This document shows positions 35,723-56,257 of a DNA stretch of 64,000 bases, piece by piece. The notes under the pieces were generated by a model that searched no databases, had not been told where the DNA came from, and was given only the letters and a program-made list of their open reading frames with translations. Numbering within the stretch: position 1 is the first letter of the stretch; the number at the start of each line of letters is the position of its first letter. The position numbers and the translations under genes are program-made. The DNA is from Trueperaceae bacterium (lineage in GTDB: Bacteria; Deinococcota; Deinococci; Deinococcales; Trueperaceae), in assembly GCA_965215565.1 (NCBI GenBank), contig CBDCDZ010000004.1, positions 736,001-800,000 on the forward strand, written 5' to 3'.

Positions 35723-36701
35723 CTATCTCTTGGATTTTGCGAGCCTTGTCAACATCGAACGTACCATAGCAGCGTAGATCAAGGCTTCACTACTTTGGGG
35801 CAGGCGCTCGTAGTCTTTGCTGTGGCGTCTATGACGGCTAATCCCAGGTTAGGTACATCGTGCCAGCACTCGAACGGGCAAAGCCCGCCCCTTCGGGGCT
35901 AGTTCTCTGTGATGCTCACCTGTACAAAGGTTCTTTCTACCACCTAGCGTCTAGGCAAGACCTTAAAGGTGCGGTTGCCCTTGAGCATAGCAAGTTGTTC
36001 AGGCGTGAGTTCTTGTCCTTCGGGAAGCCAAAAGCCTCGGATGCCTGCGTAAGCATGTTGCACAATCTCGATGGTCCAGCCTAAGGAGTCCGTGACCCAC
36101 TCTTGGAAGGTGCGCTCCCCCGTCAATAAAGAGGTGGCGAAGTCTACCGAAGCGCCCCTGTAGTGCTTCAAGCAGTTGCTCGCCTCCGGCTGGGTCACTG
36201 ATGTTGGCGGCAAGCACAAGTACGCCCAGAAGTAGCCCTTGCGTATCAACCAGGATGTGTCGCCGTCGCCCTTTAACTTTCTTGCCCCCATCGCACCCTT
36301 TGACGCCGCCTGCTTCAGTGGTCTTAACTGACTGGCTATCAATGACAGACGCGCTTGGCTCAGCCTCTCGCCCTACTCTGACGCGGAGTTGTTCTCGTAA
36401 TTGTCGGTTCATCTCTGCCCATCGTTCATCCAGCTCGACTGGACGTCCCCTCAATGCGCCAAGTGCGGAAGTAGTCATAGACAGTTTTCCACTTCGGCAA
36501 GTCGTGAGGCAACGTCAGGCGTGGTCGCACCCGCTACATACGCCACGCGCAACCGCTGCGCAGCACGTAGAAAATATCGTTCAAGACCTCCCTCACATCA
36601 ACTGAACGCGGTCGTCCACCCGGTCTAGCACTCGGGATAAGCGGCTCGAGGAGTTGCCACTCCCTATCCGTTAGGTCGCTGGGGTATGCTGGTCTGGTCA
36701 T
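35723..36701 (-). pseudogene. IS5-family DDE transposase pseudogene
   Basis: MTRPAYPSDLTDREW...GCAWRM / [14 protein letters not shown] / IDSQSVKT / KKVKGRRRHILVDTQG / RR*VVERTF / KDYER; broken by 24-, 22- and 78-bp insertions, a frameshift near 36118 and a TGG>TAG stop. Confidence 0.9.
35845..35922. mobile_element. 78-bp MITE (family D) inserted into the IS5 transposase
   Basis: CAGGTTAG...CTCACCTG inverted ends; interrupts the conserved ERTF-x-W-ISR segment. Confidence 0.7.
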
Positions 36702-37017
36702 AAGCTGAGTCTAAAAGACTCACGCTGACGCCGCTTTCTTCCTCAATTTGGGCTTCCCAGACACCCTCTAAGTCCAAATAGACTCGAGTAAGTCTCGTCC
36801 CTCACGTAAGGTGGGCTTGCGAAAAGTGTCCGAACCCATCGATCATATAGGGTTGATGCTCCTTGCTCATTCGGCTTTTTGCTCATTCGCTGGTAGAGGG
36901 CTCGAGCCTGGTTTCGCGCCACAACCAGGATGCCTCCATGAGTATGAGTTGCAAGACTCTTGTGATACGTGTTTTCGGCGTTCAGTTAACTGAACACTCG
37001 AGAGAGAACACTCGCAG

Positions 37018-37533
37018 CTACCTCGCGGGCTCCCACACGACGCCGATATTTTTCAACCGCTCCGAGAGGTCTGACGCCGAGAGAGGACCCGATTTGATCT
37101 CTCGCACTACACCTTCAGCGTCTATAAAAATAGTAGTCGGGACGCCGAACACCTCGTAGCGACGCAGCACATCCGCCGTGGTGTCGAGGTCCAGTTCGGC
37201 GCGTTCGCGGCGAGTGGGCTCGAGTCCCGCCCTTACTGTAATCCCGTGTTCTTCTAAATATGCCGCTGCCGCCTCCGCACTCTCGCTATTGTTGACCAGC
37301 AAAAACGCAACTTCCCCTAAATCGCTGCTCACCCTCTGGAAAGTAGGGAGTTCCTCCAGGCAGGGCAAGCACCACGTCGCCCAGAAGTTGAGCACGGTGG
37401 GCGTACCCGTGAAGTCAGCCAGCGAGACCCTCCTCCCCGCCCGGTCAAGGAGCGCGAAGTCGGGTGCGGGCTCACCTACCTCTTGCGCGGATACGGACGC
37501 GAAAACGAAAAGGATAAGTAGGGAGCGGCGCAT
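37018..37533 (-). CDS. TlpA/ResA-like exported thiol-disulfide oxidoreductase
   Basis: Signal peptide; NFWATWCLPC; GVPTT. Confidence 0.9.
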   Translation of the reverse strand: MRRSLLILFVFASVSAQEVGEPAPDFALLDRAGRRVSLADFTGTPTVLNFWATWCLPCLEELPTFQRVSSDLGEVAFLLVNNSESAEAAAAYLEEHGITVRAGLEPTRRERAELDLDTTADVLRRYEVFGVPTTIFIDAEGVVREIKSGPLSASDLSERLKNIGVVWEPAR

Positions 37534-37536
37534 ACC

Positions 37537-39240
37537 TTACAGGTGCTCTAGCGGGCTCCGCCGCGCCGCCCTCAGCGCAGGTAAAAGCGCGAAGAGCACA
37601 GCTACGGGCAAGAGGACGAGGCCACGCAACCAGTCCGCACGGCTCAGCTCGGGTGTCGGTAAGGTCAAACTCGCTTGAGTTTGAACCGCTTGCCCGACTA
37701 AGGTGACGCCTAAGTACGCCGCGAACACACCTAGCACAATGCCGATGACACTCAACAGCGCAGCCTCTAAGAGCACGCTCCCCGCGACGACGCGCCGCGA
37801 CACGCCCACCGCACGCAGCACCGCCAAGCTCTTCTGCGCCTGCACCGCGCCTGCGTACGTATTGAGCGCCACCGTAATGACTGCTAGTGCCAAGATGATG
37901 TTCGCCAAGAGCCCGTAGGTTTGCCGCCCTTGGCCGAGCAAGCTCAAAAGCCCGTTGATAACGCCGCCCGGAAAGACCGCCTGCACGCCGGGAAGTTCAT
38001 CTAACACGCCGGCAATTTGGTAGAGCGCGCCGAGGTTTTCGGTGGCGTAGAGCACGGCGGTGACCTCTCTGGAGTCGTCGTCACTAAGCGGCGCGTCCGC
38101 GAGGTCGGTGAGCGCCGCGACCTCTTCGGTGCGCGTTTCACTTTCACGCCCAACCTCTTCGAGGGTCAGGGCTAGCGTCTCGCGTTCAGCCGCGTTGATC
38201 TGTAAGAGGTAATCGCCGGGTTCGGTGCGAAACACGTGCGCCGAGAAAATATCTAAGCAGCCCTCGATCTCGTCCTCGCCGAGAGCGAGTTCGGGGCTGA
38301 GCGTTTCGCCGTTCTCATCTGTGAGCGTGAGAATCGCGCTCTGGTCAGCGAAAAAGGCGTAGTCCGCTGCCTCGTCCGCCGTAAAGCGCAGCGCGCCGCC
38401 CCTGTCCGCGCCCACTAGCGCCGACAAAGTCACTTCGTAACGGGTGTGGACCTCACCAATTACATCCAAACTTTCAGGCTCGAGCTTCGCCGTACGCGCT
38501 TCGCCCGCCCCACCCGTCATGTGTGCGCACGCATGGTCCGCGTCTACCGTGCCCGCTTCGGGTAAAAACTGCCCGTGCGAACTCCAGATGGACTCGGTGG
38601 AGGTGTAGACCGCCCGGTCCGAGGGTCCACCCGTCGGCTCCAAAATCCCGACGACGCGGTACTCGTCGGCGTGCATGGTGGGCTCGAAGGTCTGGGTTAC
38701 GCCGTGCGCACTCCTAAAGGTGTCACCTAAACTAAAGCCCGTCTCTCTAGCAACTTGTGCGCCCAAAACAGCTCCAAAGGGGGCTGAGAAGATGGCACCT
38801 CGCTCGAGTTGATAGTAAAGCGGCGCTTGCGGCGCGGTGCGCAGTGCGAAGTACGCGGGCGTCGTGCCGACGAGCGGATAGCCCTGAACGCTGTCGCCAA
38901 AGCCCACAGGCACTGCCCGCTCGGTACGCGGATCGTCTCTTAGCGCGGCGTAGACGCGGTACGGGATGTTACCGACAGGCGCATTCTGGTAGTAGATCGT
39001 ACTCAAGACCGCCTGCGTCTGCGAGCCCTCCGCCGTCACGAGCAAGTCGAAAATCTGCGCTGCCTCGGTTGCGCCGCGTTGAAAGGCGCGGAGGCTCAAG
39101 GGGACGACGAGCGCCAAGCCGACGCCTAAGAGCACGGCGACGACGGTCAAGACGTTGGCGAAGAGGCGCATTCGCAAGGAGCGCAGGAGCACCCAGAGGG
39201 TGAGGCGCAAGTGCTTCAGTCCGGTGGAGAGGCTGGACAT
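37537..39240 (-). CDS. FtsX/MacB-type ABC permease (ZrgC-like) with an extra periplasmic insertion
   Basis: N-terminal TM, VGFGDSVQGYPLVGTT, VVGILEPTGGPSDRAVY, LAVLRAVG, C-terminal TM helices. Confidence 0.82.
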   Translation of the reverse strand: MSSLSTGLKHLRLTLWVLLRSLRMRLFANVLTVVAVLLGVGLALVVPLSLRAFQRGATEAAQIFDLLVTAEGSQTQAVLSTIYYQNAPVGNIPYRVYAALRDDPRTERAVPVGFGDSVQGYPLVGTTPAYFALRTAPQAPLYYQLERGAIFSAPFGAVLGAQVARETGFSLGDTFRSAHGVTQTFEPTMHADEYRVVGILEPTGGPSDRAVYTSTESIWSSHGQFLPEAGTVDADHACAHMTGGAGEARTAKLEPESLDVIGEVHTRYEVTLSALVGADRGGALRFTADEAADYAFFADQSAILTLTDENGETLSPELALGEDEIEGCLDIFSAHVFRTEPGDYLLQINAAERETLALTLEEVGRESETRTEEVAALTDLADAPLSDDDSREVTAVLYATENLGALYQIAGVLDELPGVQAVFPGGVINGLLSLLGQGRQTYGLLANIILALAVITVALNTYAGAVQAQKSLAVLRAVGVSRRVVAGSVLLEAALLSVIGIVLGVFAAYLGVTLVGQAVQTQASLTLPTPELSRADWLRGLVLLPVAVLFALLPALRAARRSPLEHL

Positions 39241-39334
39241 AGACTCCAAAATAGCGTTTTTGTGTCAGTGGGGCGTCAGTCTTGAAGTGAAAACGAACCC
39301 GCACCCCCCCGCGGCACCGCGTGCGTTAGGATGG

Positions 39335-39595
39335 CTATCTCGAGTAATGGTAACGAAGCGATGCAGGCTGCAGTTCGTCACCCTTGATTCGGTAAACCAT
39401 CCGGTGCTCATCGGTGATGCGCCGAGACCACCAGCCAGATAGGTTGTGTTTGAGGGCTTCGGGCTTGCCGATACCCTCGAAAGGAGAACGTTCGACATCT
39501 TTAATCAAGAGGTTGATACGTTTAAGTATCTTCTTGTCTTGCGCGAGCCAGTACAGGTAATCTTCCCAAGCGCTCTCGTGAAAAACGTACTTCAC
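39335..39595 (-). CDS. yoeB: Txe/YoeB-family toxin
   Basis: AWEDYLYW, GIGKPEALKHNLSGWWSRRITDEHRMVY, RYHY. Confidence 0.95.
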   Translation of the reverse strand: MKYVFHESAWEDYLYWLAQDKKILKRINLLIKDVERSPFEGIGKPEALKHNLSGWWSRRITDEHRMVYRIKGDELQPASLRYHYSR

Positions 39596-39849
39596 TCAAG
39601 GAGTGACGTTTTAGTGGTGAGCTTTCGATCTTCGTCGAAATCTTCAGTTGCTCGCAGCAACCGCTCGGCATTTGCAGGACTACGTAAGAGGTACATCGTC
39701 TCCTGCCAAGCGTTCCAATCGTCCAAACTCATCATAACGACGGCTTTGTCGCTCCCTTTCGTGATGATAAGGGGGGTATGGTCATCAACGACATCGTCTA
39801 TCGCGCTAGCTAGGTTTTGCCGTGCGGTTGTGTAGTTTAGCGTTCTCAC
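39592..39849 (-). CDS. yefM: YefM/Axe (Phd-family) antitoxin
   Basis: NYTTARQNL, AVVMMSLDDW, ETMYLLRSPANAERL; 4-nt overlap with the toxin. Confidence 0.95.
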   Translation of the reverse strand: MRTLNYTTARQNLASAIDDVVDDHTPLIITKGSDKAVVMMSLDDWNAWQETMYLLRSPANAERLLRATEDFDEDRKLTTKTSLLE

Positions 39850-39850
39850 A

Positions 39851-39868
39851 TGTACATTCTACTGTACG
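39851..39868 (-). promoter_or_regulatory. yefM-yoeB operator/promoter
   Basis: TGTACA (39851-56) and TGTACG (39863-68), 12 bp apart, straddle a TAGAAT -10; same arrangement as known YefM operators. Confidence 0.7.
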
Positions 39869-39910
39869 TTCGCGAATTGCACAAGCCTTAAACCACTCAC
39901 GCCTCGAGCC

Positions 39911-40570
39911 TCACCCAAGCTCAACCACCTCTTCGAACGCCTCCCTCACCGCCGGGTCATGCGTCGAGACAATTAGAGCAGCGCCGGAGCGCCGCGCCGC
40001 CTGGCGCAAGAGGTCTAAAGCCGCCGCGCCCCGCTCACGGTCGAGGTTCGCCGTAGGCTCATCCGCCAAGAGAACGACGGGGTTTGCAGCCGTCGCCCGC
40101 GCAATCGCCACGCGCTGCCGCTCGCCTGTGGAGAGGCGTCTGGGGAGATGGTTCAACCTGTGCGCTAAGTCGAGGTCGCTCAAGAGGTCTCGCGCCCGCT
40201 CCTTCGCCTCGCCGAGCGGCACGCCAGCGGCAGCGAGCGCGACGATGATGTTTTCTAAGGCGGTGTATCCGTCAATGAGATGTAAGTCTTGAAAGACCAA
40301 GCCGATGTGCTGAGCACGAAAGCGCTCGAGGCGGCGTTGCGGCATCGTCGTTAGACTTTCGCCTGCAATCTCGACTTCGCCCCGCGTCGGCTCTAGAAGC
40401 CCGGCAAGCACATGTAAGAGCGTCGTCTTACCCGAACCACTTGGACCGACTAAAGCGAGTTCTCGGTTCGCGTTCAAGGTTAAGTCGGGCAGTTCGATGT
40501 GGGCATCTTGGGCGTAGTAGACTTCCAAACCTCTTGCCCGCACCCTTACGGAAGCCGAGTCTGTGCTCAC
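39911..40570 (-). CDS. ABC transporter ATP-binding protein (LolD/ZrgB-like); start uncertain (up to 40621)
   Basis: GPSGSGKT, LSTGERQRVAIAR, LADEPT, STHD. Confidence 0.9.
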   Translation of the reverse strand: MSTDSASVRVRARGLEVYYAQDAHIELPDLTLNANRELALVGPSGSGKTTLLHVLAGLLEPTRGEVEIAGESLTTMPQRRLERFRAQHIGLVFQDLHLIDGYTALENIIVALAAAGVPLGEAKERARDLLSDLDLAHRLNHLPRRLSTGERQRVAIARATAANPVVLLADEPTANLDRERGAAALDLLRQAARRSGAALIVSTHDPAVREAFEEVVELG

Positions 40571-40681
40571 CTCTTTACTTGGCCCGCGTGTTTTCACCGT
40601 AGGAAACATCATTATGACCACCTCGAGCTGAAGGGAGCGCTTACAAGACTCGTTGCGTTGATAACCAGATAATACCTGCTG

Positions 40682-41101
40682 CTAACCAGCACGCTCCACC
40701 TTGTCCGCCTGAATGCGGATTTTTGAGACGAAGCCGGTGTCGGGGTCTTTGGCGGTGCCAACTTCCAGGGTGCCTGTGACCTCGAGCGCCCCGAAGATAA
40801 TCGTATCTGTACCGCCCTCGGGTAGTTTCACGTAAACGATATCGGGCGGCCAGTCCGCCTCGGTCTCGCAGAAGGGGCACACGTCCATCGGGTATTTGGT
40901 CAGGACGAAAAAGTCGGCGTCAGGCTTTAAGGGTGGGGCAGCGAAGCCGAGCATCGTGACCGTCTCGCCTGAAGCCGCCTGGAGTTCGGGGGTGAATTCT
41001 TGCGTGTCCATGTCCGCGTAGAGGTCGCCGAAGGTAAAGGTGGGCTGAGCGAAGGACAAACTGAGCGCTAAGAGCGCGAAAGGGAGGGCTAACCGGAACA
41101 T
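40682..41101 (-). CDS. Exported DUF3299/ZrgD-like protein
   Basis: Signal peptide; GETVTMLGFAAP, FFVLTKYPMDVCPFC, LEVTGTLEVG; GAGGTG RBS. Confidence 0.65.
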   Translation of the reverse strand: MFRLALPFALLALSLSFAQPTFTFGDLYADMDTQEFTPELQAASGETVTMLGFAAPPLKPDADFFVLTKYPMDVCPFCETEADWPPDIVYVKLPEGGTDTIIFGALEVTGTLEVGTAKDPDTGFVSKIRIQADKVERAG

Positions 41102-41167
41102 CTCATCACCTCTTCTTCATTGTAAGAAAATTCGCGGACGCTTTGGTCATGTGGGGCTCATGTAGGC

Positions 41168-41206
41168 AAAAGGAGAACCTGAGAGCGCGAAACTCCCAGG
41201 TTTCTT
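41168..41206 (-). terminator. Terminator downstream of the alkaline phosphatase gene
   Basis: Minus strand AACCTGGGAG-TTTCGCG-CTCTCAGGTT followed by CTCCTTTT. Confidence 0.55.
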
Positions 41207-41232
41207 GAGTCAGGTTTCTCGAGTAACAAGGC

Positions 41233-43311
41233 TTAGTTGCCCGACGCCGCCCCCGAGAGGAGTTCACCTAAGCGGCGCACCGACTCGGCTTGCTGACCCT
41301 CCAAGCCCTCCGCGTACTGCGTGGTCTCTTCGCCCAAGCGGGAGAGGATGTCGGCGGCTTGCGCGCTGCCCGTGCCGAGCGCTGTCCCAAGCTGCTCTAA
41401 AGAGGTCACGATGGGCTGCAAGTCGGGATCGTCTAAGCTGCTGAGGCGCTGCTGCCAGCCCCGGATAACCTCGATAGCGGTGTCCTCGTCTAAGTTCTCC
41501 ACGCCGCCTTCTAAAGCGGAGATCGTCTCGTCTAAGTTCGGCGTGCTCACGGTGGAGTCGCCAGCGGGTGCGTCGATGGCTTCGCCGCCCGTCATGTCGC
41601 CGCCCGTCATGCCACCGCCGGTTACGTTGTCTTGGACGCTGCTCGAGAAGCTGGTGCTGCTCGCCAACATCGAGAGGTCGGTCATGCCCGTCTCGACTTG
41701 CGGCGCGTCGGCTTGCGCCTCACCGCTCACTCCGGCTTGCTCCGCCAAGTTGCCTAGAGCGTAGTTCATCACATGGAAGAGGTAGTTCTGCTCGACGGTG
41801 CCGCGTACTAAGTGCGAACGCGGACCGATGGCGTAAGCGGCGATGTCCGTGCCGTCGTGCGTCTCGCTGCTCAGGGGCACGAGCGCCTGCTGGAAGAAGT
41901 CTTTCGCCTGCGTGTCCGTATCAGACAGGTCGGGGCGTTCGCCGATGACCGCGCCGGGACCATTGAGGTAGCCCAGGGTGGTGTAAGGCTTGCCGTCCGC
42001 GGCGAGGGCGAGTTCGTCCACCGGCTCGCCTTGGTCGTCGAGCCCTCTGACGAGACCTAAAATCGGGTTGCCGCGCTGCGGGTAGCCCGCGATGTCCATC
42101 GTGTGCGCGTGGTCGGCGGTGACGATGATCAGCGTGTTCTCGGTGTCCACCTTGTCCAGTGCCGCCTGCACCGCGTTCGCGAACGCGATGTTGTCGGTCA
42201 GCGTGCGAAAGGCGTTCGTGCCGTGGCTCGCGTGGTCCACGCGCCCCGACTCAACCTGGAGGATGTAGCCCTCTTCGTTCTGCGACAACACGTCGATGGC
42301 TTTAGAGACCATCTCGGAGAGCGCGGGCTCGCCGCCCGTGTCCTCAGCGCGGTCGGCTTCGTACTCCATGTGCGACTGATTGAAAAGCCCTAAAACTGGA
42401 CCGGTGGAAGCTGGGTCGATGGCGTCAAAGTCCTCTTGGTTCCAAACGTAGGTCGCGCCTTCGCGCCCCTGAACCCACTCTTCGGTCAAGTTGCGCCCGT
42501 CGGTACGGCGGCCCGTTTCATCCTCGTCTTCGGGGTCTTGCACGTCTTCGGGGAGGAAGTGGCGGCGTCCGCCACCCATCGCAACCTCTAAGCCGTCGCC
42601 GTAGGGGAAGTCGATGAGCTGCGAGGCGATGTCCGTGCAGCCTCCCTGGACCGCCTCTTCGGGCAGCGCGGAGTTATCTTCCCAGTTGCGGTCGGCGGAG
42701 TGTGCGTAGTTCGCAGCGGGCGTTGCGTGGGTAATGCGGGCGGTGCTGACCGTGCCCGTCGCCATGCCAACTGTCTCCGCGAGTTCGAAGAGCGTAGTAA
42801 GGCGGTTTTCCTGGGCTGAGGCGCAGTCGCCGCGCAGCACGTCCGGGCCGACACCTAAGACGCCCTGCTTCGTCTTGATGCCCGTGCTCCACGCCGTGCC
42901 CGTACCCGCTGAGTCAGGCACTTGCGCGTTGGAGTTGTAGGTCTTGATCAGCGCGACGTTCGGGAAGGTGTCATAAGGGAGGATGTTCTCTTCGCCCTGC
43001 AAGCCCTTCATCTGCCCCGCCAAGATGCGCGTCGCCGTGACCGTCGTAGGCCCGGCACCGTCCGCGACGAAGATGATGACGTTTTGCGCCTCGTTATTAT
43101 TGGGCTGCACCTCCAACATCTGCTCCAGAGTCTGCTGACCTAGCGCGTAGTACGGGTCGCTCGTCTGTGACATGGAGAGGTCGGCTGAGCCCCCCGTTTC
43201 CATGCCTCCTGTTATTGCGCCGCCTGTCGCGCCACCCGTCTGCGCGAAGCCTACGCCTGTGAGCGCCGCGCCGCTGAGCGCCACGTAACCAAGAAGTCGT
43301 CCTAGTCGCAT
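41233..43311 (-). CDS. phoA: Secreted alkaline phosphatase (PhoA family) with C-terminal extension
   Basis: IIFVADG, PDSAGT (catalytic Ser), HATPA, ESGRVDHASH, TADHAH, ETH; signal peptide; GGAGGA RBS. Confidence 0.9.
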   Translation of the reverse strand: MRLGRLLGYVALSGAALTGVGFAQTGGATGGAITGGMETGGSADLSMSQTSDPYYALGQQTLEQMLEVQPNNNEAQNVIIFVADGAGPTTVTATRILAGQMKGLQGEENILPYDTFPNVALIKTYNSNAQVPDSAGTGTAWSTGIKTKQGVLGVGPDVLRGDCASAQENRLTTLFELAETVGMATGTVSTARITHATPAANYAHSADRNWEDNSALPEEAVQGGCTDIASQLIDFPYGDGLEVAMGGGRRHFLPEDVQDPEDEDETGRRTDGRNLTEEWVQGREGATYVWNQEDFDAIDPASTGPVLGLFNQSHMEYEADRAEDTGGEPALSEMVSKAIDVLSQNEEGYILQVESGRVDHASHGTNAFRTLTDNIAFANAVQAALDKVDTENTLIIVTADHAHTMDIAGYPQRGNPILGLVRGLDDQGEPVDELALAADGKPYTTLGYLNGPGAVIGERPDLSDTDTQAKDFFQQALVPLSSETHDGTDIAAYAIGPRSHLVRGTVEQNYLFHVMNYALGNLAEQAGVSGEAQADAPQVETGMTDLSMLASSTSFSSSVQDNVTGGGMTGGDMTGGEAIDAPAGDSTVSTPNLDETISALEGGVENLDEDTAIEVIRGWQQRLSSLDDPDLQPIVTSLEQLGTALGTGSAQAADILSRLGEETTQYAEGLEGQQAESVRRLGELLSGAASGN

Positions 43312-43471
43312 ATTTCCTCCTCTGAGGTCACAGTCACGAATCCGTCCGCGAGTCACGCCGCCGATACCGTTATGAAAAACCTCACGAGCAACTTAGCGTA
43401 GCAATGTCATGGCTTTGTAAAACAGTAAGATATTTGGTGAGATGCTGTGAAGTGCTTAGTGGGGAAGATAG

Positions 43472-43540
43472 CGATGAGCAATGAGCGACGAGCAATGAGT
43501 AGAAAGGCTCTAGTCTTCTCTTATTGCTTATCGCTTGCTT
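43472..43540. repeat. Heptamer (ATGAGCA-type) tandem repeat folded into a hairpin
   Basis: GATGAGCAATGAGCGACGAGCAATGAG...CTTATTGCTTATCGC; a similar unit lies at 56091-56189. Confidence 0.6.
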
Positions 43541-43589
43541 TTGATACCGTTTCTGTCCCAATAAGAACTACCCCGAGTGTAAGGAGTAG

Positions 43590-43628
43590 AAAAGAGTACG
43601 GATTTCGCTGATAGCGAAATCCGTACTC
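43590..43628 (-). terminator. valS terminator built from family C repeat sequence
   Basis: Perfect 16-bp stem GAGTACGGATTTCGCT-GAT-AGCGAAATCCGTACTC, followed by TTTT on the minus strand. Confidence 0.75.
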
Positions 43629-43656
43629 GAGATTGTCAGCGGCGCGGAAGGATGCC

Positions 43657-46293: not shown

Positions 46294-46310
46294 GTAGGGT
46301 CTCCTTTTTC

Positions 46311-47184: not shown

Positions 47185-47185
47185 A

Positions 47186-47527
47186 AAAACACCTCCTCCA
47201 CATGACGTTTATTCAACGTCTGCGGACGAGGCTCTTCCCCGCGTTACCACCGCAGTTCCCTACCTTGGTAGATAGAGCACTTCATTGCGTCGCGGCTGAC
47301 GGGGCGACTCGAACACAGCGACAAGGTCTGTATTCGCCGGAGGGTCTAGTCGGTTGGGGCTATTGGCCTTCAAAAGCTGGCAAACCTCTCAACCTTTCTT
47401 CCTCAACAGGTGGCATCTTTTGATGGATGATACCCTTCTAGGCGACCTTCACTCGCGGCACTCCGCTCGGACTTTCAGCGCACCGTCCGGGCTCTCTTAT
47501 GAAGCGAGAAGCGAGCTACTCCTCCTA
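47186..47527 (-). ncRNA. T-box riboswitch, Val specifier (GUC)
   Basis: Minus strand: AGGAGGAGTAG...AGAGAG...GGTGCGCTGAAAG stem I; GAAG-GTC-GCCT specifier (47446-47444); CCCGTCA; antiterminator TGCGG-TGGTAAC-GCGGGG...CTCGT-CCGCA (47254-47221); TACACT -10 at 47538-47533. Confidence 0.85.
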
Positions 47528-47652
47528 CTTAGAGTGTAGCAAAGCGCGAGGTAAGACGCAAAGAGGTCAAAGAACAGTGGCGAGGTTTTCAGTGGAAGAA
47601 GACCGAGGAATGAAAGTATCAAAGTCGTTTCTCAAAACCTCTTCTTCTAACT

Positions 47653-48663
47653 TCAAGGACCTTCGCCGCCCGTCTCTCCTACACTTACAGACGGGTCCAG
47701 ATACTCGTTGCTGAAAAATGTGTCCGCCGGGAGGTCCGTTTGGGCGCGCCCGACCTCTTGTAAAAAGGTGAGTGCGTCGTCCCAGCGCGCCGGGTCAGTG
47801 GAGCCTACGCCGTTGGCCTCGCTGTAGGGCGAGGTCAAGAGGGGCAGCGTCGCCTCTAAAACCGCCAAGCGGTCCTCGTCCAAGTTCTCGACGTATTCCC
47901 TCGACGCCTCGAACGCCCGCCTCGGCTCCTCCAAAGTCAGCGCAAGACCTCTTTGCGACGCGCTTAAAAAACGCCGCACCAGGTCTTCGTCCTCCAAAAC
48001 CGCTTCCGTCGTGACGACGCCCGCACCGGGTGCGGGGTTGTAGTCACCGGCGGGGATGACGTTCACCTCGACGCCGCGCTGCGCCAAGACTAGGGGTTCG
48101 TTGTTGATAAAACCCATCGCCACGTCTACGCGCCCGCCGAGTAAAGCTTCCAACTGCGTGAAGCCGATCTGCTCTACGGTGAGGTCGTCTTCCGTCAAAT
48201 CTGCTGCTTGCAACACCCCTTGAAACGAGGTGTACGACGAGCCGAAGAGCCCCGGCAGTCCTACCGTCTTACCTGCTAAGTCCTCAATTTCAGTAATGTT
48301 CGCTTCCGGCAGCGAAAAGAGCGCGCTCGGCACGCGCTGGAAGAGCGCCATGAGGTAGACGAAGCGCGTGCCCTCCGGGTCTTGAGCACGTAAGCTGATC
48401 ACGTCCTCGGCGTCGCCTACGACGAAGTCGAGCCTGCCTTGGGCTAAGAGCGGGTAGAGTTCGCTGACGAAACCGTGCTGGAACTCCACCTCTAAACCTT
48501 GTTCTTCATAAAAGCCCGCTACCGCAGCCGCATAGAAGGGCGCGAACTGCACGTCGGGCAAGTAGCCGAGCCCTACGCGGACGCTCTGGGCGTTCGCGGA
48601 GAGAGTCAACAGAAATAGCGTCAAAACTGTGTAGCGTAAAAGCGTAGTCATCGGAACGGACAC
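47653..48663 (-). CDS. NMT1/THI5-like ABC substrate-binding protein (RibY-like)
   Basis: Signal peptide; GYLPDVQFAPFY, DLAGKTVGLPGLFGSSY, GFINNEP. Confidence 0.8.
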   Translation of the reverse strand: MSVPMTTLLRYTVLTLFLLTLSANAQSVRVGLGYLPDVQFAPFYAAAVAGFYEEQGLEVEFQHGFVSELYPLLAQGRLDFVVGDAEDVISLRAQDPEGTRFVYLMALFQRVPSALFSLPEANITEIEDLAGKTVGLPGLFGSSYTSFQGVLQAADLTEDDLTVEQIGFTQLEALLGGRVDVAMGFINNEPLVLAQRGVEVNVIPAGDYNPAPGAGVVTTEAVLEDEDLVRRFLSASQRGLALTLEEPRRAFEASREYVENLDEDRLAVLEATLPLLTSPYSEANGVGSTDPARWDDALTFLQEVGRAQTDLPADTFFSNEYLDPSVSVGETGGEGP

Positions 48664-48786
48664 ACCTCCAGAATGAAAGCTTAGAAGAAAGCCAAGCTGT
48701 ACGATACCGAATGCGTTAGAAGAAACCGTGAGCAGCGCGACAAGACATGTTCATCGGCGCTTCAGGTTTCTTAGCTCCTCAGACTT

Positions 48787-50304
48787 TTACCTGCGGCGGT
48801 AGCTCAGCGCCCACTTCTCAAGAAGTCCAACTGCGCCGTAAAGCAGCAAGCCTAATGCGACGTTCACGCCGACGGCGGCAACCGCGTTCGCCACGCGAAA
48901 ATTGAGCCGCTCACTGTTGGCGAACGCGCCTAAACCGGGTCCGCCGAAGACGAACTCGCCCACCACCGTGCCGATGAGTGCCAGTGTCACGGTGAGGCGC
49001 AAACCGCCCAACACGACGGGGAGCGCGCCGGGCAGCTCGAGCCGTGAAAAGTTCCCCCACGCCGTTGCGCCGATTGTCCTAAAGACCTCCCTATAAACCC
49101 GCCCGACTTCGCGCACGCCCACCACCGTCGAGACGAGCACCGGGAAAACCGAGATGAGCGAGGTCACGGTGAGCTTCGCACTCAAGCCGTAGCCGAGCCA
49201 GAGGACTAAAAGCGGCGCGATGATCACGGTGGGTACGGCTTGAAGCGCGACGATGAAGGGAGACAAAAGGCGCTCTAAAGGTTTCGAGCGTCCCATAAGG
49301 TAGCCTAGCGGCACACCCAGCCCAAGCGCCACGAATACGCCGAGTAAAGTGACGCGCAAGGTGGCGAGCGTGTGACCTGTGAGCACAGCGGCGTTGTCTA
49401 GGAGCGCGCGCCCTACGGTGAGCGGCGAGGGCAAGAAAAGCGGCGACACGCGGCTTGCGAGCGCACTCCAGCCCGCTAAGAAGAGGACCAAGAGCGCCGC
49501 CGCGCCGAGGAGTTCCCAGGGGGCACGCGCCGGCGTGCGCGCCCGACGAAGCTCCGTCGAATCGGCGACGCCCAAGCGGGCGCGCAGGTCCGCCTCGAGC
49601 CCTGCCTCATACGCCGTGATGCGCCCCTCGCTACGGGCGTCCAGCACTGTTTCGATGCGCCCGTCTTTTAAGACCACTACGCGGTCCGCCATGTAGACCG
49701 CCTCGCGGATACTGTGCGTGACGAAGAGAACGGTCTTCTGCGTCTTCTGGTGGAGGCGTTTGAGTTCTAAGTTGAAGCGTTCGCGCACGAGCGCGTCCAG
49801 AGCGGCGAAGGGCTCGTCCATGAGCAGCACTTCGGCGTCCTGGGCGAGCGCCCTGGCGATGGCGACGCGCGCCTGCATCCCGCCTGAAAGCTGATGCGGG
49901 TAGCGCGCGGCGTGCTCTTGCATCCCCACCTGCTTTAAGACCTCGTCCGCGTCCTCGCCGCGCCCGGTGAGGTCACGGGGCAACGAGACGTTGCGCCGCA
50001 CCGTGCGCCAGGGCAAAAGGCGATAATCTTGGAACACGACAGCGGGACCGCCCCGGACCTCTACCTCGCCCCTGTCCGCTTTGAGAAGCCCTGCAATCAC
50101 GCGCAAAAGTGTACTCTTGCCGCCGCCTGACGGACCGATGAGCGCCACGAACTCGCCGCGCTTAACCTCCAAGTCCACGCTCTGCAACACCGGATTGTCC
50201 TGAAAGGTGACGCACACACCCTCTAAACGGATAACGGGCGGCGCGGATTCAGCAGTAGGCTCGGACGGACGAGATGGCAGAGAGAGACTCACGACCTCCA
50301 GCAT
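48787..50304 (-). CDS. Fused ABC ATPase-permease (SsuB/TauB-like + SsuC/RibX-like)
   Basis: GPSGGGKS, LSGGMQARV, MDEPFAALD, VTHS, followed by a TM domain with LPSP and GEFV...GLG. Confidence 0.85.
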   Translation of the reverse strand: MLEVVSLSLPSRPSEPTAESAPPVIRLEGVCVTFQDNPVLQSVDLEVKRGEFVALIGPSGGGKSTLLRVIAGLLKADRGEVEVRGGPAVVFQDYRLLPWRTVRRNVSLPRDLTGRGEDADEVLKQVGMQEHAARYPHQLSGGMQARVAIARALAQDAEVLLMDEPFAALDALVRERFNLELKRLHQKTQKTVLFVTHSIREAVYMADRVVVLKDGRIETVLDARSEGRITAYEAGLEADLRARLGVADSTELRRARTPARAPWELLGAAALLVLFLAGWSALASRVSPLFLPSPLTVGRALLDNAAVLTGHTLATLRVTLLGVFVALGLGVPLGYLMGRSKPLERLLSPFIVALQAVPTVIIAPLLVLWLGYGLSAKLTVTSLISVFPVLVSTVVGVREVGRVYREVFRTIGATAWGNFSRLELPGALPVVLGGLRLTVTLALIGTVVGEFVFGGPGLGAFANSERLNFRVANAVAAVGVNVALGLLLYGAVGLLEKWALSYRRR

Positions 50305-50396
50305 AACGTTACCGCACTTAGGAACGGGTTATCTCGAGGCGTATGGGTGCCACCGGTCTCCTTTCGCCACCTTCTCCCTAAATCTCTTTTCTTCTC

Positions 50397-50879
50397 TTAG
50401 TTCTCTCTAGGAGCGTGCGTCACCTCAGTTAGCGTCTGCGTGAGCGTCCGTAAAAACAAGAGCACCGCTCCACGTTCAGCGTCGCTCATGGCGTCGGTCT
50501 CGCGCTTGACCGTCTCCAAGATGGTATAGAACTCCCCCACTGCCTGCTCCGACTGTGGCACGTAGTGAATCATGATGCTGCGCCGGTCCGTGGGGTGCGG
50601 CTCACGCCGGACGAACCCGTGCGCCTCCAAGCGGTCTACGAGCGTCGTCATCGCGCCCGAGGTCAAGCTAACACGCTTTCTAAGCTCGCCTAAAACGAGC
50701 GGACCGTCAAGCCGCAAGTGTTGCATCGCCACCATCTCCGACGGGTTGAGCTTGGTGTCACTCGCGATTTTGGTGCTCATAGAGAGTATTGCCGCACTAA
50801 GACGCATGAAGGCTTCTTGAACTGGCTCGAGCCTAAAGTTTGATTCTCTAGTATCTTGATTTTCGTTCTTCTTTACCAT
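50397..50879 (-). CDS. MarR-family transcriptional regulator
   Basis: LTSGAMTTLVDRLEAHGFVRREPHPTDRRS; likely start at ATG 50879. Confidence 0.88.
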   Translation of the reverse strand: MVKKNENQDTRESNFRLEPVQEAFMRLSAAILSMSTKIASDTKLNPSEMVAMQHLRLDGPLVLGELRKRVSLTSGAMTTLVDRLEAHGFVRREPHPTDRRSIMIHYVPQSEQAVGEFYTILETVKRETDAMSDAERGAVLLFLRTLTQTLTEVTHAPREN

Positions 50880-50995
50880 ATAGTTAGTATAGCTCAGAGA
50901 GGAGTGGCCTATGGTGTGTTCTTCGGTGGTTAGGTGAGTCAAATTTATTTGCGACGCGAAACTCTCAACATAGAGGAGAACTACGCTCACCTTCG

Positions 50996-51130
50996 TAGCA
51001 GTTCCAGAACATACTGAGACGGATGAGCGCAGATCTCAGTTCGAAGGACTAGCGGGATTTCATCCCAGAATGTGCGTGCTGGACGATGTTCTAAAAAGTG
51101 AGAGCGTCTCTGACCAGATGATACCTGCTA
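50996..51130 (+). mobile_element. MITE family A, copy 3
   Basis: TAGCAGTTCCAGAACATACTGAGAC...GACCAGATGATACCTGCTA. Confidence 0.8.
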
Positions 51131-51170
51131 TCGGTTGTTTCTCAATCTCTCGGCGTAAGGAGCATAGAAC

Positions 51171-51956
51171 ATGAACGAAAAAGCTAAGCAAATTCTGACC
51201 CTCGTCGCCACCTTCTTCGGCGTGCTCGCCCCCTCCCTCACTTCGCTCACACCAAGTAGCTCGAGTACCGGCGAAATTTCAGGGCGATACTTTAGAGACG
51301 TATTCATCGTCCCCGCAGATTACGCCTTCGTCATCTGGGCACCTATCTATTTAGGTTTACTCGCTTTCGCGGTGTATCAAGCCCTACCTGCGCAGCGGCA
51401 CAACCCGCGCATTGCTAAAACGCGCCTCTGGCTAATCGTAAGTGCGCTCCTCAACACCGCTTGGATCACCGCCTTTGACAACCTCTTCTTCGCCCTCTCA
51501 CTCGTCATCATCGTAGGAATGCTCATCACCGCGCTCGTCATGCACCGCACGCTAGAGATTGGTCGAACGCAGGTATATGGGCTCGAGCGCTGGCTCCGTA
51601 TCCCTTTTAGCCTCTATGCGGGCTGGCTCACCGTCGCCACTATCGTCAACGCGGCAGGCGTGCTCGTGGTGAGGGACTGGGGCGGTCTCCCCTACTTCTA
51701 TCCGGTGTGGGGTGTCGCGACGCTGCTAGTCGCCGCTTTCATCGGTCTCTACACCCGCTTCTACTGGCGTGACCCCGTGTACGGCGGCGTTTTTGTGTGG
51801 GCACTTCTTGCTGTCGCTCTTAAAACGGATCAACCTCTTGTCATTGTCGTGACCTCGAGCGTTTTGGCGCTCCTCTTTTTGCTCTCGCTCTTTCCCGGTG
51901 CGTTTAACGTGCTCAAGGTGGGAGGTGGAGGCTCGAGGCAGACAGCCTCGCAGTAA
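51171..51956 (+). CDS. TspO/MBR-like tryptophan-rich membrane protein
   Basis: PADYAFVIWAPIY, LNTAW, FSLYAGWLTVATIVN; multiple TM helices; AAGGAG RBS. Confidence 0.75.
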   Translation: MNEKAKQILTLVATFFGVLAPSLTSLTPSSSSTGEISGRYFRDVFIVPADYAFVIWAPIYLGLLAFAVYQALPAQRHNPRIAKTRLWLIVSALLNTAWITAFDNLFFALSLVIIVGMLITALVMHRTLEIGRTQVYGLERWLRIPFSLYAGWLTVATIVNAAGVLVVRDWGGLPYFYPVWGVATLLVAAFIGLYTRFYWRDPVYGGVFVWALLAVALKTDQPLVIVVTSSVLALLFLLSLFPGAFNVLKVGGGGSRQTASQ

Positions 51957-51966
51957 CCCCTGACTT

Positions 51967-52081
51967 GGTAGTGGTTTTAAGTCGAATGTCGCTACAAGCT
52001 TCTTCCGCCATTTGCCCATGATGAACAAGGGGTTGCAACCCCTTGTTCATCCTCTGCGTCATTCTGAGTAAAGCCACTACC
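51967..52081 (-). repeat. MITE/REP-like family B, copy 2
   Basis: GGTAGTGG...CCACTACC ends; 32-bp perfect palindrome at 52020-52051; reverse-complement homologue of 26341-26455. Confidence 0.75.
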
Positions 52082-52088
52082 CTTGCCT

Positions 52089-52661
52089 TCATTTGGCACG
52101 CTCTCCCCGCGCCGCTAGCTCTGCCGTTCTCTCTATCCGCGCTCGCCTCGTCTCGTCGCGCTTGGCGGTTTTAACCCAGAGGAGAATCTGCTTTTTGGAA
52201 CCGTCCGAAAACGCGCTGAAATTCTCCAAAGCCAGGTCACGCTCCCGCAGCGCGTCCATGAGGTCATCGGGAATTTCCAAGTTTTCCACCGAATCTAAAA
52301 AGGTCCACGAGCCGTCCGCTTTTGCCCTATCGATCTTCGCCTGCCCCGCCGGGGTCATCTTGCCGTCCGCGATGAGGTGAACAAGGCGCGCCTTGTTCAC
52401 CTTCGACCAGACGCTGCCCGCTTTACGTGGGGTAAAAATCTGCTTGTAGCGCGCTTCGTCTACGCGGTTCACCTTGGAGTCTATCCAGCCGTAGCAAAGC
52501 GCCTCTTCCACCGCCTCGTCCCAGGTGACGCTCGGCGCGCCGCTGCCCTTCTTATAGTAGACGAGCCAGACGCCGAGGCTTACCGCGTGGTTTTCACGTA
52601 GCCATTCACGCCAGGCGGTCTGGTTGGCGGCGTAGACCTCTTCGAAGTCGTTAAGGCTCAT
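52089..52661 (-). CDS. YdeI/OmpD-associated family protein
   Basis: WREWLRENH, EEALCYGWIDS, TPRKAGSVWSKVNK, AKRDETRRARI. Confidence 0.88.
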   Translation of the reverse strand: MSLNDFEEVYAANQTAWREWLRENHAVSLGVWLVYYKKGSGAPSVTWDEAVEEALCYGWIDSKVNRVDEARYKQIFTPRKAGSVWSKVNKARLVHLIADGKMTPAGQAKIDRAKADGSWTFLDSVENLEIPDDLMDALRERDLALENFSAFSDGSKKQILLWVKTAKRDETRRARIERTAELAARGERAK

Positions 52662-52762
52662 CCTTTCATCCTTGGATACGCACTTTAGCACGTGCGCCAC
52701 GTCTCGGAATGAGCGCGACACGCCCCTAACACCGCCCTTAGATTTGCGGTAGCATAGACCTC

Positions 52763-53932
52763 TTGCGCGTTCTCATCTTCCTCCTCCTCTCGAGCCTCGC
52801 TAGCGCCCAACCCGCTGAGCCCGTGGCTGATGCCGCCTTCCAGCCCGGTCTCTCGTTTGGTCCTGTGCTCCGCTTCGGGGCATTTGACGACTTTTCGGTG
52901 GGGCTCGAGCTGCGCGGTGTGACGGTCTATGGTGAGCGTATTACGACGACGCTCGCGGCGGGTCCCAACCCGGAGGGACAGCTCGCGAGCGCGGGCCTAC
53001 TCTACGAGCAGCCTTTTCTTGATCTCTCCTTCGGTGAGGACGCTACGCTGAGCTTTTTTGCCCGCTCGAGCTTCGCGCAGAGCTATCCTCTAGTGCTGGA
53101 CGCCGAACCGGACGCACCCGGCTCAGAGCCGGAAACGCGGCCCTTTACCGAACGCCTCAACGAGTTAGGGCTAGGGCTAGCGCAACCCTTTGGCGAGATT
53201 GAGGTGGGCGTGGAGGGGCGCGTCGTGGGTTCGGAGGCGTTTTTAGAGAGGCGCGGTGCGCCTGGAGACACCAGAGATGACGCGGGACGCGAACTGCTCC
53301 CCTCGAATTCGCTGAGCGCGGTTGTCGAGGTCAGCGCGCGCTACGAAGGTGTTGCAGAAAACACGCCCGTGCCACCTTCAGGCGGCGCGGCGTCGCTCAG
53401 CTTTGGCTACGGACTCGGACGCTCTAGCGCGCCGCTCTCGTGGGCGCAGGTCCAGTTAGGGGGGCGCGGCTATCTCACGCTAGATGACCTCTTGGGTATT
53501 CAGAGCGCAGACGGAGGGACGCCGAGCGTTACACTCGCGAGCCGAGCGAACGCGGGCGCGAACTTAGGGCGAGCCCCCGCGTGGCGACGCCTCGCTCCGA
53601 CGCTGCGCGGCTACGACGCCTTCGACCTCGTCGGTCAGCGCTACGTTGACCTCTCGCTCGACTTGCGCCTCTACACAGGCTTAGACGCGGCGCTAGGCGG
53701 ACCCTCGTATCTGCGCGGCGTGACCCCGTATGGCTTCGTGGACGTGGGCAACGCTTGGGGCGACGAAAGTGCGAGCTACCGCGCGCCCGGCATAGGCGAG
53801 GGGGTACGGATTGGCTTCGGGGCAGGTTTGCAACTCGATTTAGAGACCCAGTACTTCAGGCTGCCGCTCAACCTCTGGTACGCGCGCGGAGCGAGGGGCA
53901 AGGTGGGGTTCGCGCTCGAGTACCCTTATTAG
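52763..53932 (+). CDS. BamA/TamA (Omp85)-like outer-membrane beta-barrel without evident POTRA domains
   Basis: Signal peptide; LRGYD, FVDVGNAW, GFGAGL; aromatic C-terminus. Confidence 0.6.
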   Translation: MRVLIFLLLSSLASAQPAEPVADAAFQPGLSFGPVLRFGAFDDFSVGLELRGVTVYGERITTTLAAGPNPEGQLASAGLLYEQPFLDLSFGEDATLSFFARSSFAQSYPLVLDAEPDAPGSEPETRPFTERLNELGLGLAQPFGEIEVGVEGRVVGSEAFLERRGAPGDTRDDAGRELLPSNSLSAVVEVSARYEGVAENTPVPPSGGAASLSFGYGLGRSSAPLSWAQVQLGGRGYLTLDDLLGIQSADGGTPSVTLASRANAGANLGRAPAWRRLAPTLRGYDAFDLVGQRYVDLSLDLRLYTGLDAALGGPSYLRGVTPYGFVDVGNAWGDESASYRAPGIGEGVRIGFGAGLQLDLETQYFRLPLNLWYARGARGKVGFALEYPY

Positions 53933-53992
53933 CGCCCTAGTTTAAGCACGCCGCCACACCTTTTAGGCGAGCGTATAGGGGTACACTTTAGC

Positions 53993-55531
53993 GTGCCAGA
54001 CTACGACGTGATCACCATTGGCGCGGGACATAACGCGCTCATCTCGAGCGCCTACCTCGCGCAAGCGGGCTACAAAGTGGGCGTGTTCGAGCGGCGCGAT
54101 ATCGTCGGCGGCGCGGTCTCGACTAAGGAGATGGTCCCCGGCTACAAGTTCGACTTGGGCGGCAGCGCGCACATCCTCATCCGCCTGACGCCTATCGTCG
54201 AGGAGTTGGGGCTTGAAAAGTACGGGCTCGAGTACATCGACATCGACCCGCTCTTCTTCGCGCCCTACCCGGACGGCGACAGCGTCTTTTTCTACCGCAG
54301 CGAAGAGAAAACGATTGAGCATCTCGAGCAGAAGTTTCCCGGCGAGGGCGAAGCGTATAAGCGCTTCATGGACGAGTGGCGTCCCTTCTCGCAGGTGGTT
54401 AAAGACCTCTTCCTGAGCACGCCGAGTCCCTTCAACCTGGGCAAAAAGATGATGTTCGGCAAAGCCATCCAGGGCGACTGGAAAGACGCTTTGCCAAAAA
54501 TTTTGAAGCCGTATGGCGACATCGTGGACGACTACTTTTCTGAAGAGAAGGTCAAGACGCCCCTGGTGTGGATGGCAGCGCAGTCGGGTCCGCCACCCTC
54601 CGAGCCGATGACCTCGCCCTTTTTACTGTGGCATCCCTTGTACCACGAAGGGGGCATGGCGCGTCCCAAGGGCGGCTCGGGGATGCTCACACAGGCGCTC
54701 AAGAACCACATCGAGGCGCACGGCGGCGAAGTCTTTACGAATGCGCCCGTCGAGGAGATTTTAGTCGAAGGGAAGCGGGCAGTGGGCGTCAAGGTAGACG
54801 GACAGACCTACACCGCCCGCACCGTGATGGCGGGCGCACACGCGCTAGAGACGTTCGGCAAGCTCCTGCCCGAAGAACACCGCCCTAAAGGTGCTAAGAA
54901 TATGCGCGTCGGCAACGGCTTCGGGGCGATCTTACGCCTCGCGCTCGATAAGCCCATCCGCTATCCCGCCCACCCCGGCAACGAGGCGCGACGGGCGCTG
55001 CAACTCGTCTGCCGCGACCGCAAACAGCTCTCCGCCGCCTACGGCGACTACCTGGCAGGGCGTCCCGCCACGGACCCGCCCATCGTCGCCATGAGTTTCA
55101 GCGCGGTGGACGACACGCTCGCGCCGCCCGGCGGCGAGGTCTTGTGGCTGTGGGCGCAGTACTTCCCCTACGAACTCGCGAACGGCGCAACTTGGGACGA
55201 GGTGCAAGAAGAGGTGGCGGAGCGCATTTTAGATACCTTCGAGTGTTACGCGCCAGGCACCAAAGAGAGCGTCGTCGGCGGGCTCTTTCAGCACCCGGAG
55301 TGGCTGGAGCGCAACTTAGGGCTCTACCGGGGCAACGTCATGCACTTAGAGATGAGCCTAGACCAGATGTTCGCGTTGCGCCCCTTTTTAGGCATGGCGG
55401 AATACAAGACGCACCTCAAGGGGCTCTATTTGACGGGCGCGAGCACGCATCCGGGCGGCGGCATCATGGGCGCGTCGGGGCGCAACGCGGCGCGGGTGCT
55501 CCTCAAAGATTTGGACAGGCGCAGAGTTTAA
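53993..55531 (+). CDS. crtO: Carotenoid ketolase CrtO (phytoene desaturase family)
   Basis: [65 protein letters not shown], as in Deinococcus CrtO. Confidence 0.85.
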
Positions 55532-55582
55532 TTTTATGGTTTTTAGCATACAAGGGGCGCGCGCTTTTTGTATGCTAACTTC

Positions 55583-56089
55583 ATGATTCGAACCGCTATC
55601 TTGACCTCGAGCGACAAGGGCGCGAAGGGCGAACGCGCCGACACCTCCGCCCTGGAAATTCGCAAGCTCTTAGCCACCGGCCCCTTCACCGAGGTAGACT
55701 ACCAGGTCGTCCCCGATGAGCAAGCCGTGATCCGCTCTAAACTGCGCGTCTGGTCAGAGTCGGACGCGGTCGACCTCATTTTGACCACGGGCGGCACGGG
55801 CTTAGCGCTCCGCGACCGAACACCGGACGCGACGTTGGAGGTCATCGAGCGCAGCGTGCCGGGCTTACCCGAGCTGATGCGCCTCACCGGGATGCAGCAA
55901 AACCGCAAGGCGGCGCTCTCGAGGGGCGTCGCAGGTGTACGCCGCCAGACCTTGATCGTCAACCTGCCGGGCAGCCCGAAAGGGGCGCAAGAATCATTAG
56001 AAGCGATCATCGACATCTTGCCGCACGCCGTCGACCTCATTAAAGGCAATAAGCGCAGCGAGCTGAGCGCGCCGCAGGATTGGCATTAA
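55583..56089 (+). CDS. MogA/MoaB molybdenum cofactor biosynthesis protein
   Basis: SSDK, TTGGTGLALRDRTPDAT, SRGVAG, NLPGSPKG. Confidence 0.92.
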   Translation: MIRTAILTSSDKGAKGERADTSALEIRKLLATGPFTEVDYQVVPDEQAVIRSKLRVWSESDAVDLILTTGGTGLALRDRTPDATLEVIERSVPGLPELMRLTGMQQNRKAALSRGVAGVRRQTLIVNLPGSPKGAQESLEAIIDILPHAVDLIKGNKRSELSAPQDWH

Positions 56090-56090
56090 G

Positions 56091-56189
56091 GAGCAATGAG
56101 TTAAAAGCAACCCAGTCGAGCTGGGCGAACGGTGAGCAACGAGTCTGAAGGTTGTCAACTTTCAACTCATTGCTCGTTGCTCATTGCTC
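56091..56189. repeat. Heptamer-repeat hairpin carrying a 22-bp insert (56111-56132)
   Basis: GAGCAATGAG...TGAGCAACGAG...CTCATTGCTCGTTGCTCATTGCTC. Confidence 0.65.
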
Positions 56190-56257
56190 TCTAAAAAGAT
56201 TCTCCGCTCTACCTCTCCTAGTAGACACCCGGCCGCTGCATCTGCCATGCTGGGCGC

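Follow-up and report, generated by a model that had tools for sequence, protein, structure and literature searches.

Very small hairpin inserts of the small dispersed repeat kind in a Trueperaceae genome, likely moving as single-stranded DNA

How do pieces of DNA of little more than twenty nucleotides come to lie, with base precision, inside a transposase gene, a heptamer array and a miniature inverted-repeat transposable element (MITE)? The question is raised by a stretch of 64,000 nt ("the window") from a Trueperaceae bacterium (GenBank assembly GCA_965215565.1, contig CBDCDZ010000004.1; G000:C4:736001-800000 in our numbering, where G, C and L denote genomes, contigs and loci), whose genome, G000, comprises 4.49 Mb and is 99.99% complete. 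We conclude that the inserts are gene-less micro-elements, very probably of the small dispersed repeat (SDR) type, which are placed at exact phosphodiester bonds without target duplication and likely move as single-stranded DNA (ssDNA); that they are mobile at all we regard as almost certain. The genome records that carry the window's elements bear Trueperaceae or Truepera titles. What is new here is the phylum, the families and the general build.

Single-hairpin inserts in the window

The first host is a broken transposase of the IS5 family of insertion sequences (IS), the halves of which match NCBIfam NF033580 at adjoining model positions (1-50 and 73-182). The initial annotation proposed that excising 36422-36443 (E1) mends this gene, and indeed, once the insert at its second site (E3) is removed as well, a single continuous IS5 frame spans both sites; one more frameshift persists downstream. 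A 75% identical homologue in G002 (L057) is empty at both sites, with an exact 22-nt gap at that of E1. The same homologue holds an E1 copy of its own, eight bases downstream of the E3 site. G000 contains no second full copy of the window IS5, its other match covering the 3' part only. The E1 homologue noticed at 56111-56132 does interrupt a heptamer, the site reading AAGCAA/TGAGCAA (here and below the slash marks the point of insertion). The T-A/C-G difference at the stem base of the two, described as compensatory, is coupled: with a pattern that permitted mixed pairs, all 70 exact matches in G000, G001 and G002 carry T..A (58) or C..G (12), which may go back to one inherited change. At up to two mismatches G000 has 15 intact E1 copies, and 29 when inserts of class A (see below) are peeled out of them. 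A narrower pattern gives 13 copies in G000, 30 in G001, 40 in G002 and 5 in the unpublished G035, from which alone E1 is known in a second genus; among 72 family genomes it matches five, one through a lone chance-like match. Reading the flanks of 36 E1 loci, a fraction of those found, gave 12 distinct sites when G035 is left out, including two different places in IS5, and in the loci read the next base after E1 is always T or C.

The second insert in the transposase, E3, had been placed at 36512-36535; its removal joins the IS5 frame, but the flanks of E3 in other genomes move it to the positions given in Table 1. Fifteen copies occupy 14 distinct sites with unrelated flanks in 6 of 72 Trueperaceae genomes from three genera, the preceding base is G in all 15, and a sixteenth copy, in G000, is interrupted by E4. 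According to NCBIfam matches the hosts include IS5, IS3, IS701 and an IS1182/IS4-like DDE transposase, to which an IS1-like frame, identified by eye, can be added. A fold rule for E3 targets was rejected, as folding varies among them. The E3 pattern has no match in metagenome contigs, and plasmids contain no full copy of E3 or E4. In G283 and G034 (L150, L153) copies of E3 adjoin a primase-like gene (TIGR01391 match), and these surroundings may be an integrated plasmid or phage satellite.

E4 splits CCCGC/TAG in a copy of the repeat family MITE A, as had been noted for 63024-63050, but the flanks in other genomes again shift its limits (Table 1), the doubtful base being G. The suspected CGC duplication is not general, since other G000 sites share GC or just G; a site in G005 shows a 5-nt overlap. 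The MITE A site is filled in 27 copies and empty in 25. Altogether G000 carries 36 E4 copies at four sites, 30 of them at one MITE site, as well as three copies of a 24-nt variant; of 60 relatives two have E4, and in G005 it occupies a fifth site. Beyond the relatives, an E4-type pattern matched one viral and seven metagenome singletons, which cannot be distinguished from chance. As chance control the patterns of E1, E3 and E4 were read backwards, and none of these matched in G000. A further single-hairpin insert family, TACCCG...GGGCACAGG (17-23 nt), has five copies at several sites (e.g. G000 C4:1034591 and 2030569).

Two-hairpin class A inserts and the Nostocaceae repeats

A scan of G000 for filled and empty alleles, which required 13+13 exact flanking bases, ignored secondary structure and dropped tandem-like events and those with more than three ambiguous bases, yielded 257 events of 17-27 nt, corresponding to 143 distinct inserts. 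Of these, 74 share one build, termed class A: a 5'-T, up to two spacer bases, a GNA or GNNA loop on a 2-bp stem, a linker as long as the spacer, a second hairpin, and a target A (200 shuffles gave a mean of 0.16 and a maximum of 2). The regularity does not depend on the terms of the search: with the A requirement lifted 74 of 76 inserts still precede A, and with the loop requirement lifted the first loop is GNA or GNNA in 74 of 83. Among the 69 that do not fit, many turn out to be E1, E4, or class A copies that are shifted or carry a single mutation. Terminal inverted repeats with a fixed target duplication, as in MITEs of the DDE type, are not seen, most events showing zero or one ambiguous base. 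Genome-wide, the class A descriptor has 333 matches in G000 on the two strands, 259 of them before A, against 19 (reversed) and 17 (complemented) in controls of one strand each. In one subfamily 67 of 69 first stems pair when left free, with four pair types. The loops lie on one strand, and some of them (GTTA, GCTA, GTCA) fall outside the GNRA type of RNA.

At the 20 distinct class A sites with an empty allele the target consensus is /ACR (C at 15, purine at 18). Class A elements occur in E1, in their own loops and at their own 3' junction, just as E1 occurs in class A and E4 in E3. Most copies in all families are passengers of repeated hosts; MITE A and its vicinity account for 192 of the 259 class A copies. 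Within MITE A the elements point either way (65 of 167 in the same direction) and occupy different sites. No clear in-frame insertion of class A in an ordinary gene was found. Two rules for target choice were rejected. The first, leader-target pairing as a guide, was suggested by element position 2 and target +2, which are G and C in Trueperaceae and, in some Nostoc copies, A and T; leaders of TTG and TTC, however, are found before AT as well. In the second, a triloop rule, position -3 pairs with +2 at only 8 of 20 sites. In some second hairpins the loop reads TCC or TTC, the reverse complement of GNA, as though the hairpin had flipped. A 37-nt two-hairpin insert family with empty alleles (window 35869-35905; G000 C4 near 100771, 3035100 and 4264200) has 39- and 50-nt relatives. 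Relatives of MITE A exist in G001, G002, G282, G362 and G364, and no parent element was found.

One class A pattern occurs in 3 of 364 Deinococcota genomes, all from the genus of the window, and another in 6 of 20 chosen genomes, where the outliers that we read are passengers in MITE A relatives. Among 185,579 genomes, 21 of the 32 matches to a class A pattern fall in three Trueperaceae records, while the 11 singletons are near a rough estimate of chance. In viral sequences 28 of 53 distinct matches were paired, which is the level of chance.

Elhai et al. reportedly described in 2008 that SDRs nest and occupy heptamer arrays and mini-transposons, and all three situations occur here. The elements have further in common with SDRs that they are dispersed, mostly of 21-27 nt (some of 17-20 nt here), precisely inserted and found as filled and empty alleles, whereas E1, E3 and E4 differ as single-hairpin types. 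The initial annotation suggested no more than a system analogous to SDRs. The SDR-like character stands, with precise insertion at many independent sites and no general target duplication, and class A, absent from that annotation, carries the link beyond analogy. One SDR, the 21-nt SDR5, enters the HIP1 site between its third and fourth base (PMC4390886, PMC13756078), and reports on it state that it was not found outside Nostocaceae and has no known function (PMC4390886, PMC5861425, PMC13756078). A structure-free search for split HIP1 in plasmid pNPUN01 of Nostoc punctiforme gave 34 matches, among which one 21-mer parses exactly as class A. Scanning this plasmid with the class A grammar gave nine matches, three in exact GCG/ATCGC and two in near sites; by count this is not an enrichment (9 on two strands vs 4 and 5 on one strand each), and the plasmid has no E1 core. 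A pattern derived from these matches occurred 13 times in three more Nostocaceae plasmids (reversed control: 0), five times in exact HIP1, four times in near sites and four times elsewhere, always preceded by G.

From their length and position we infer that these HIP1-splitting 21-mers are SDR5. Their build is that of class A elements whose leader has 3 nt (T, GNA hairpin, 2-nt linker, GNA hairpin, A), which suggests that class A and SDR5 are of the same structural kind and hence that an SDR-type system exists outside cyanobacteria. The two differ in sequence and in target, which for class A is /ACR (none of the 20 sites is HIP1), and class A leaders have 1, 2 or 3 nt. The system, put forward as the best candidate for an undescribed one, is very probably a variant of SDR. 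In literature searches that covered few subscription journals, neither SDR-like elements in Deinococcota nor a mini-hairpin interpretation of SDR5 turned up, and Elhai et al. 2008 may already draw the mini-hairpin fold of SDR5.

Table 1. Micro-elements of the window and the sequences that host them
Feature	Position in window	Strand	Basis
E1, class B micro-element, 22 nt (5-bp hairpin and 7-nt tail), in IS5 transposase	36422..36443	-	exact gap vs G002 homologue
E2, C-G variant of E1, in heptamer array	56111..56132	+	pattern and flanks
E3, class C micro-element, 24 nt, bulged hairpin and tail, in IS5 transposase	36513..36536 (alt. 36514-36537)	-	flanks elsewhere; one-base G ambiguity
E4, class C micro-element, 27 nt, bulged hairpin and AACG tail, in MITE A	63023..63049 (alt. 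63022-63048)	+	empty MITE sites
Class A micro-element	33345..33368	+	by build; no empty allele seen for that copy
Class A micro-element, 3-nt leader type	33224..33246	-	by build
17-nt class A variant (no linker, mutated loop), nested in class A copy within MITE	57895..57911	+	sequence; family by empty alleles
17-nt insert of further small family	58077..58093	.	empty allele elsewhere in G000
Host of E1 and E3: broken IS5-family transposase	35944..36701	-	frame reading and NCBIfam match
Host of E2: AGCAATG-type heptamer array, inverted arrangement	56092..56190	.	sequence
Host of E4: MITE A copy (~110-bp family, TAGCAG...CTGCTA ends, ~170 near-full copies)	62898..63107	+	family comparison

Intermediate and candidate movers

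The initial annotation left the choice between an ssDNA and an RNA intermediate, and the evidence favours the former. GCGNAGC and GCGNNAGC are described in PMC13037366 as extra-stable, nuclease-resistant DNA mini-hairpins, the RNA versions of which are much weaker. Because class A carries loops of this DNA type (GNA, GNYA) and G000 has no match to the reverse transcriptase model RVT_1 (PF00078, the one model used), we consider an ssDNA intermediate probable for class A. Fixed ends, the lack of duplication and the fixed base at the cut would fit two nicks followed by cross-joining, which is the chemistry of HUH/Y1 enzymes; according to PMC8266576 and PMC6006769, these excise and join hairpin-bearing ssDNA strand-specifically. 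By analogy, then, a trans-acting strand-transfer enzyme of the HUH/Y1 (TnpA/RAYT) type could be the mover, a proposal that we make tentatively. The strand with the GNA loops would fold while the DNA is single-stranded, and the enzyme would nick it at both element junctions, free a small single-stranded piece, probably a circle, and reseal the donor strand. The freed piece would be joined into a nick 5' of a target A. The untouched strand would retain its copy, so that copy number rises, and the 3' junction of the element would recreate the target, which would account for head-to-tail and nested stacks. The ssDNA route is extended to E1, E3 and E4 by analogy with class A; these three, having other ends, may need other enzymes.

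Several observations weigh against this proposal, and none of the movers tested (RAYT, Ssn nuclease, mobile tyrosine recombinase) fits well. The mover had been expected to be encoded outside the window, and none of the candidates that we located lies within it. G000 has two Y1 proteins. One is a stand-alone RAYT encoded between mutS and mutL (L050, C4:3590035-3590556; counterpart in G001, L051), with its own GTAG repetitive extragenic palindrome (REP) translated in frame within the gene, a position that PMC6006769 describes for RAYT subclass 2.4. GTAG-guided cleavage by RAYT is reported at CT (PMC8266576), and CT junctions are absent from the ends of the micro-elements, GTAG being found in E3 alone. 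The RAYT clade occurs in 12 of 72 genomes but in only one of six E3 holders; G027 and G284 possess it without a match to the patterns of E1, E3 or class A. The model PF01797 has no match in G001 and G002, a result of limited sensitivity because the model missed the RAYT. No circle or excision product was observed, and contigs of sequencing runs gave no information on excision. Class A copies show no evident replication-strand bias (121 of 259 overall, 30 of 67 outside MITEs), in a test with a poorly defined origin, weak GC skew and many passenger copies. Larger elements bounded by micro-element ends number none for E1 or E4, one pair for E3 and 14 pairs for class A, the left halves of the latter being whole or nested elements. 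Finally, E1, E3 and E4 lack GNA loops, and their predicted folds are modestly better than those of shuffles (z -0.2 to -2.7).

The second Y1 (HUH) domain, with intact HVH and Tyr, lies in frame within a 1322-aa type IIG restriction-methylase (L001/L207, G000 C4:3786207-3786563); after it stands a palindrome, CAAGGGG...CCCCTTG, of which the genome holds some 55 copies. This domain is without a PF01797 counterpart in G001 and G002. Other searches added no candidate: the Y2/IS91 model PF04986 matched none of 20 genomes, with a positive control that also matched nowhere; a HUH motif scan of the open reading frame (ORF) calls was too strict and missed the known RAYT; and no relaxase was apparent on the plasmid, the ORFs of which were read by eye only. 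Contig C3 of G000 (23.7 kb) contains an 11-kb plasmid twice in tandem, probably through an artefact of assembly. In G000 C2:45088-45936 there is a 282-aa ORF that we take to resemble a Thg1-like 3'-5' polymerase.

Among known systems, REP/REPIN-RAYT and the ends of IS200/IS605 share with the micro-elements short hairpins, ssDNA chemistry and the lack of target duplication, and E3, with the shared G included, begins with GTAG and, like REPs, has a bulged stem. Here, however, the units are single rather than doublets, lack CT ends and do not flank a RAYT, and the RAYT does not track them. Origin as non-autonomous IS200/IS605 derivatives has no support, as no parent IS with matching ends and TnpA turned up in the genome. 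The same applies to IS110 mini-derivatives: the seven near-identical resident copies have other ends and target MITE A, with two broken copies left out of the comparison. All seven (L002-L008) have entered the left end of MITE A at a single position. The double-hairpin elements and GC clusters of mitochondria are likewise described as tiny gene-less hairpin units with patchy presence and an unknown mover; they are organellar.

It is unlikely that the mover is a tyrosine recombinase acting on the folded single strand, much as integron integrases act on attC cassettes. As candidate we considered a mobile, stand-alone XerC/D-like protein of 305 aa (G000 C4:389648-390562). It has close homologues of 62-90% identity in six of nine micro-element holders and in none of 11 non-holders (genomes merely without a match to the patterns used), and its gene occurs in several copies at varying locations, with cassette-like genes behind it. 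However, the genomes are kin, hence not independent, and may share a gene pool, and the clade was not found in G282, G034 and G364, all of which hold elements. Nor do the 83.5 kb around ten copies of the gene contain any E1-, E3- or E4-like motif or an excess of class A, and the class A copies in G362 and G282 (two of five read) ride as passengers in relatives of MITE A. Plasmids yielded 22 relatives of the recombinase at E<=1e-40; 21 come from Bacillota, one bears the label Arthrobacter, and none is cyanobacterial. The recombinase itself (L205/L225-L230, L358-L366) has Bacillota affinity and a conserved hairpin over its ribosome-binding site, and with the variable toxin-antitoxin-like genes downstream the locus may be a cassette-gathering element.

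Just as improbable, in our opinion, is movement with no dedicated transposase, in which a hairpin-specific ssDNA nuclease of the Ssn type (GIY-YIG) or a type IA topoisomerase of the host cuts and pieces of mini-hairpin are ligated or copied into nicks by repair. A host enzyme as the cutter would account for the failure of every candidate gene to track the elements. Mini-hairpins, besides resisting nucleases, bind SSB poorly (PMC13037366), and CGTC or CGTT adjoins the bottom-strand hairpin in E3, E4 and E1, while class A lands with CGT abutting the hairpin. CGTC-tagged repeats are described with no known transposase (PMC3733652) and as Ssn substrate (PMC11893778). The likeness to the CGTC-REP/SRM-Ssn systems lies in CGTY by the foot of the hairpin on one strand and in strand-specific ssDNA hairpins. 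But stems of the ATTC/GAAT type are absent here, and of 19 genomes only G002 and G283 have an Ssn-like gene, G000 having a distant small GIY-YIG alone (35%). Moreover, as far as the text of PMC11893778 is available, Ssn cuts upstream in the variable flank, and neither strand transfer nor joining activity is shown for it; repair alone would hardly yield base-precise, repeated ends. The Ssn-like GIY-YIG gene of G002 (L128, C10:214214) stands behind an array of GTCATTC-type repeats, the loops of which hold GNA mini-hairpin modules.

Movement through RNA, by reverse splicing or reverse transcription, is very unlikely. In its favour, hairpins with covarying stems are compatible with RNA, transcribed DNA holds or adjoins many of the copies, and numerous class A loops (GTAA, GCAA, GGAA) are of the GNRA form as well; against it stand the missing RVT_1 match, the DNA-type triloops on 2-bp stems and GNYA loops, and the occurrence of both orientations in MITE A. 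Hardly tenable is the view that the inserts are not mobile, having arisen once or by local slippage and then travelled as passengers of MITEs and ISs, as the crowding of E4 at one MITE site and of class A in and near MITE A might suggest, given the many unrelated sites of E3 in three genera, the 12 of E1, and the removal of tandem-like events ahead of counting.

Significance

We return to the ssDNA route proposed for class A. It is conceivable, if on balance doubtful, that SDR5 and class A form one cross-phylum ssDNA family (17-27 nt, with GNA mini-hairpins) moved by an undescribed route of single-strand transposition. It is no less doubtful that the enzyme of this route would read the rabbit-ear fold, cut 5' of A and paste the 21-mer scarlessly. 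If true, this family would be among the smallest mobile DNAs. The mechanism of SDR mobility has stood unsolved since 2008, and the function of SDR5 is still called unknown in a paper of 2026 (PMC13756078). The shared build defines a 21-nt substrate, its strand, two cut positions and a target rule, and thereby makes the question reducible to an oligonucleotide assay. An enzyme that inserts 21-27 nt scarlessly would be a useful tool. For the Trueperaceae themselves, the micro-elements break or extend transposases of several IS families and so shape the mobilome of their hosts.

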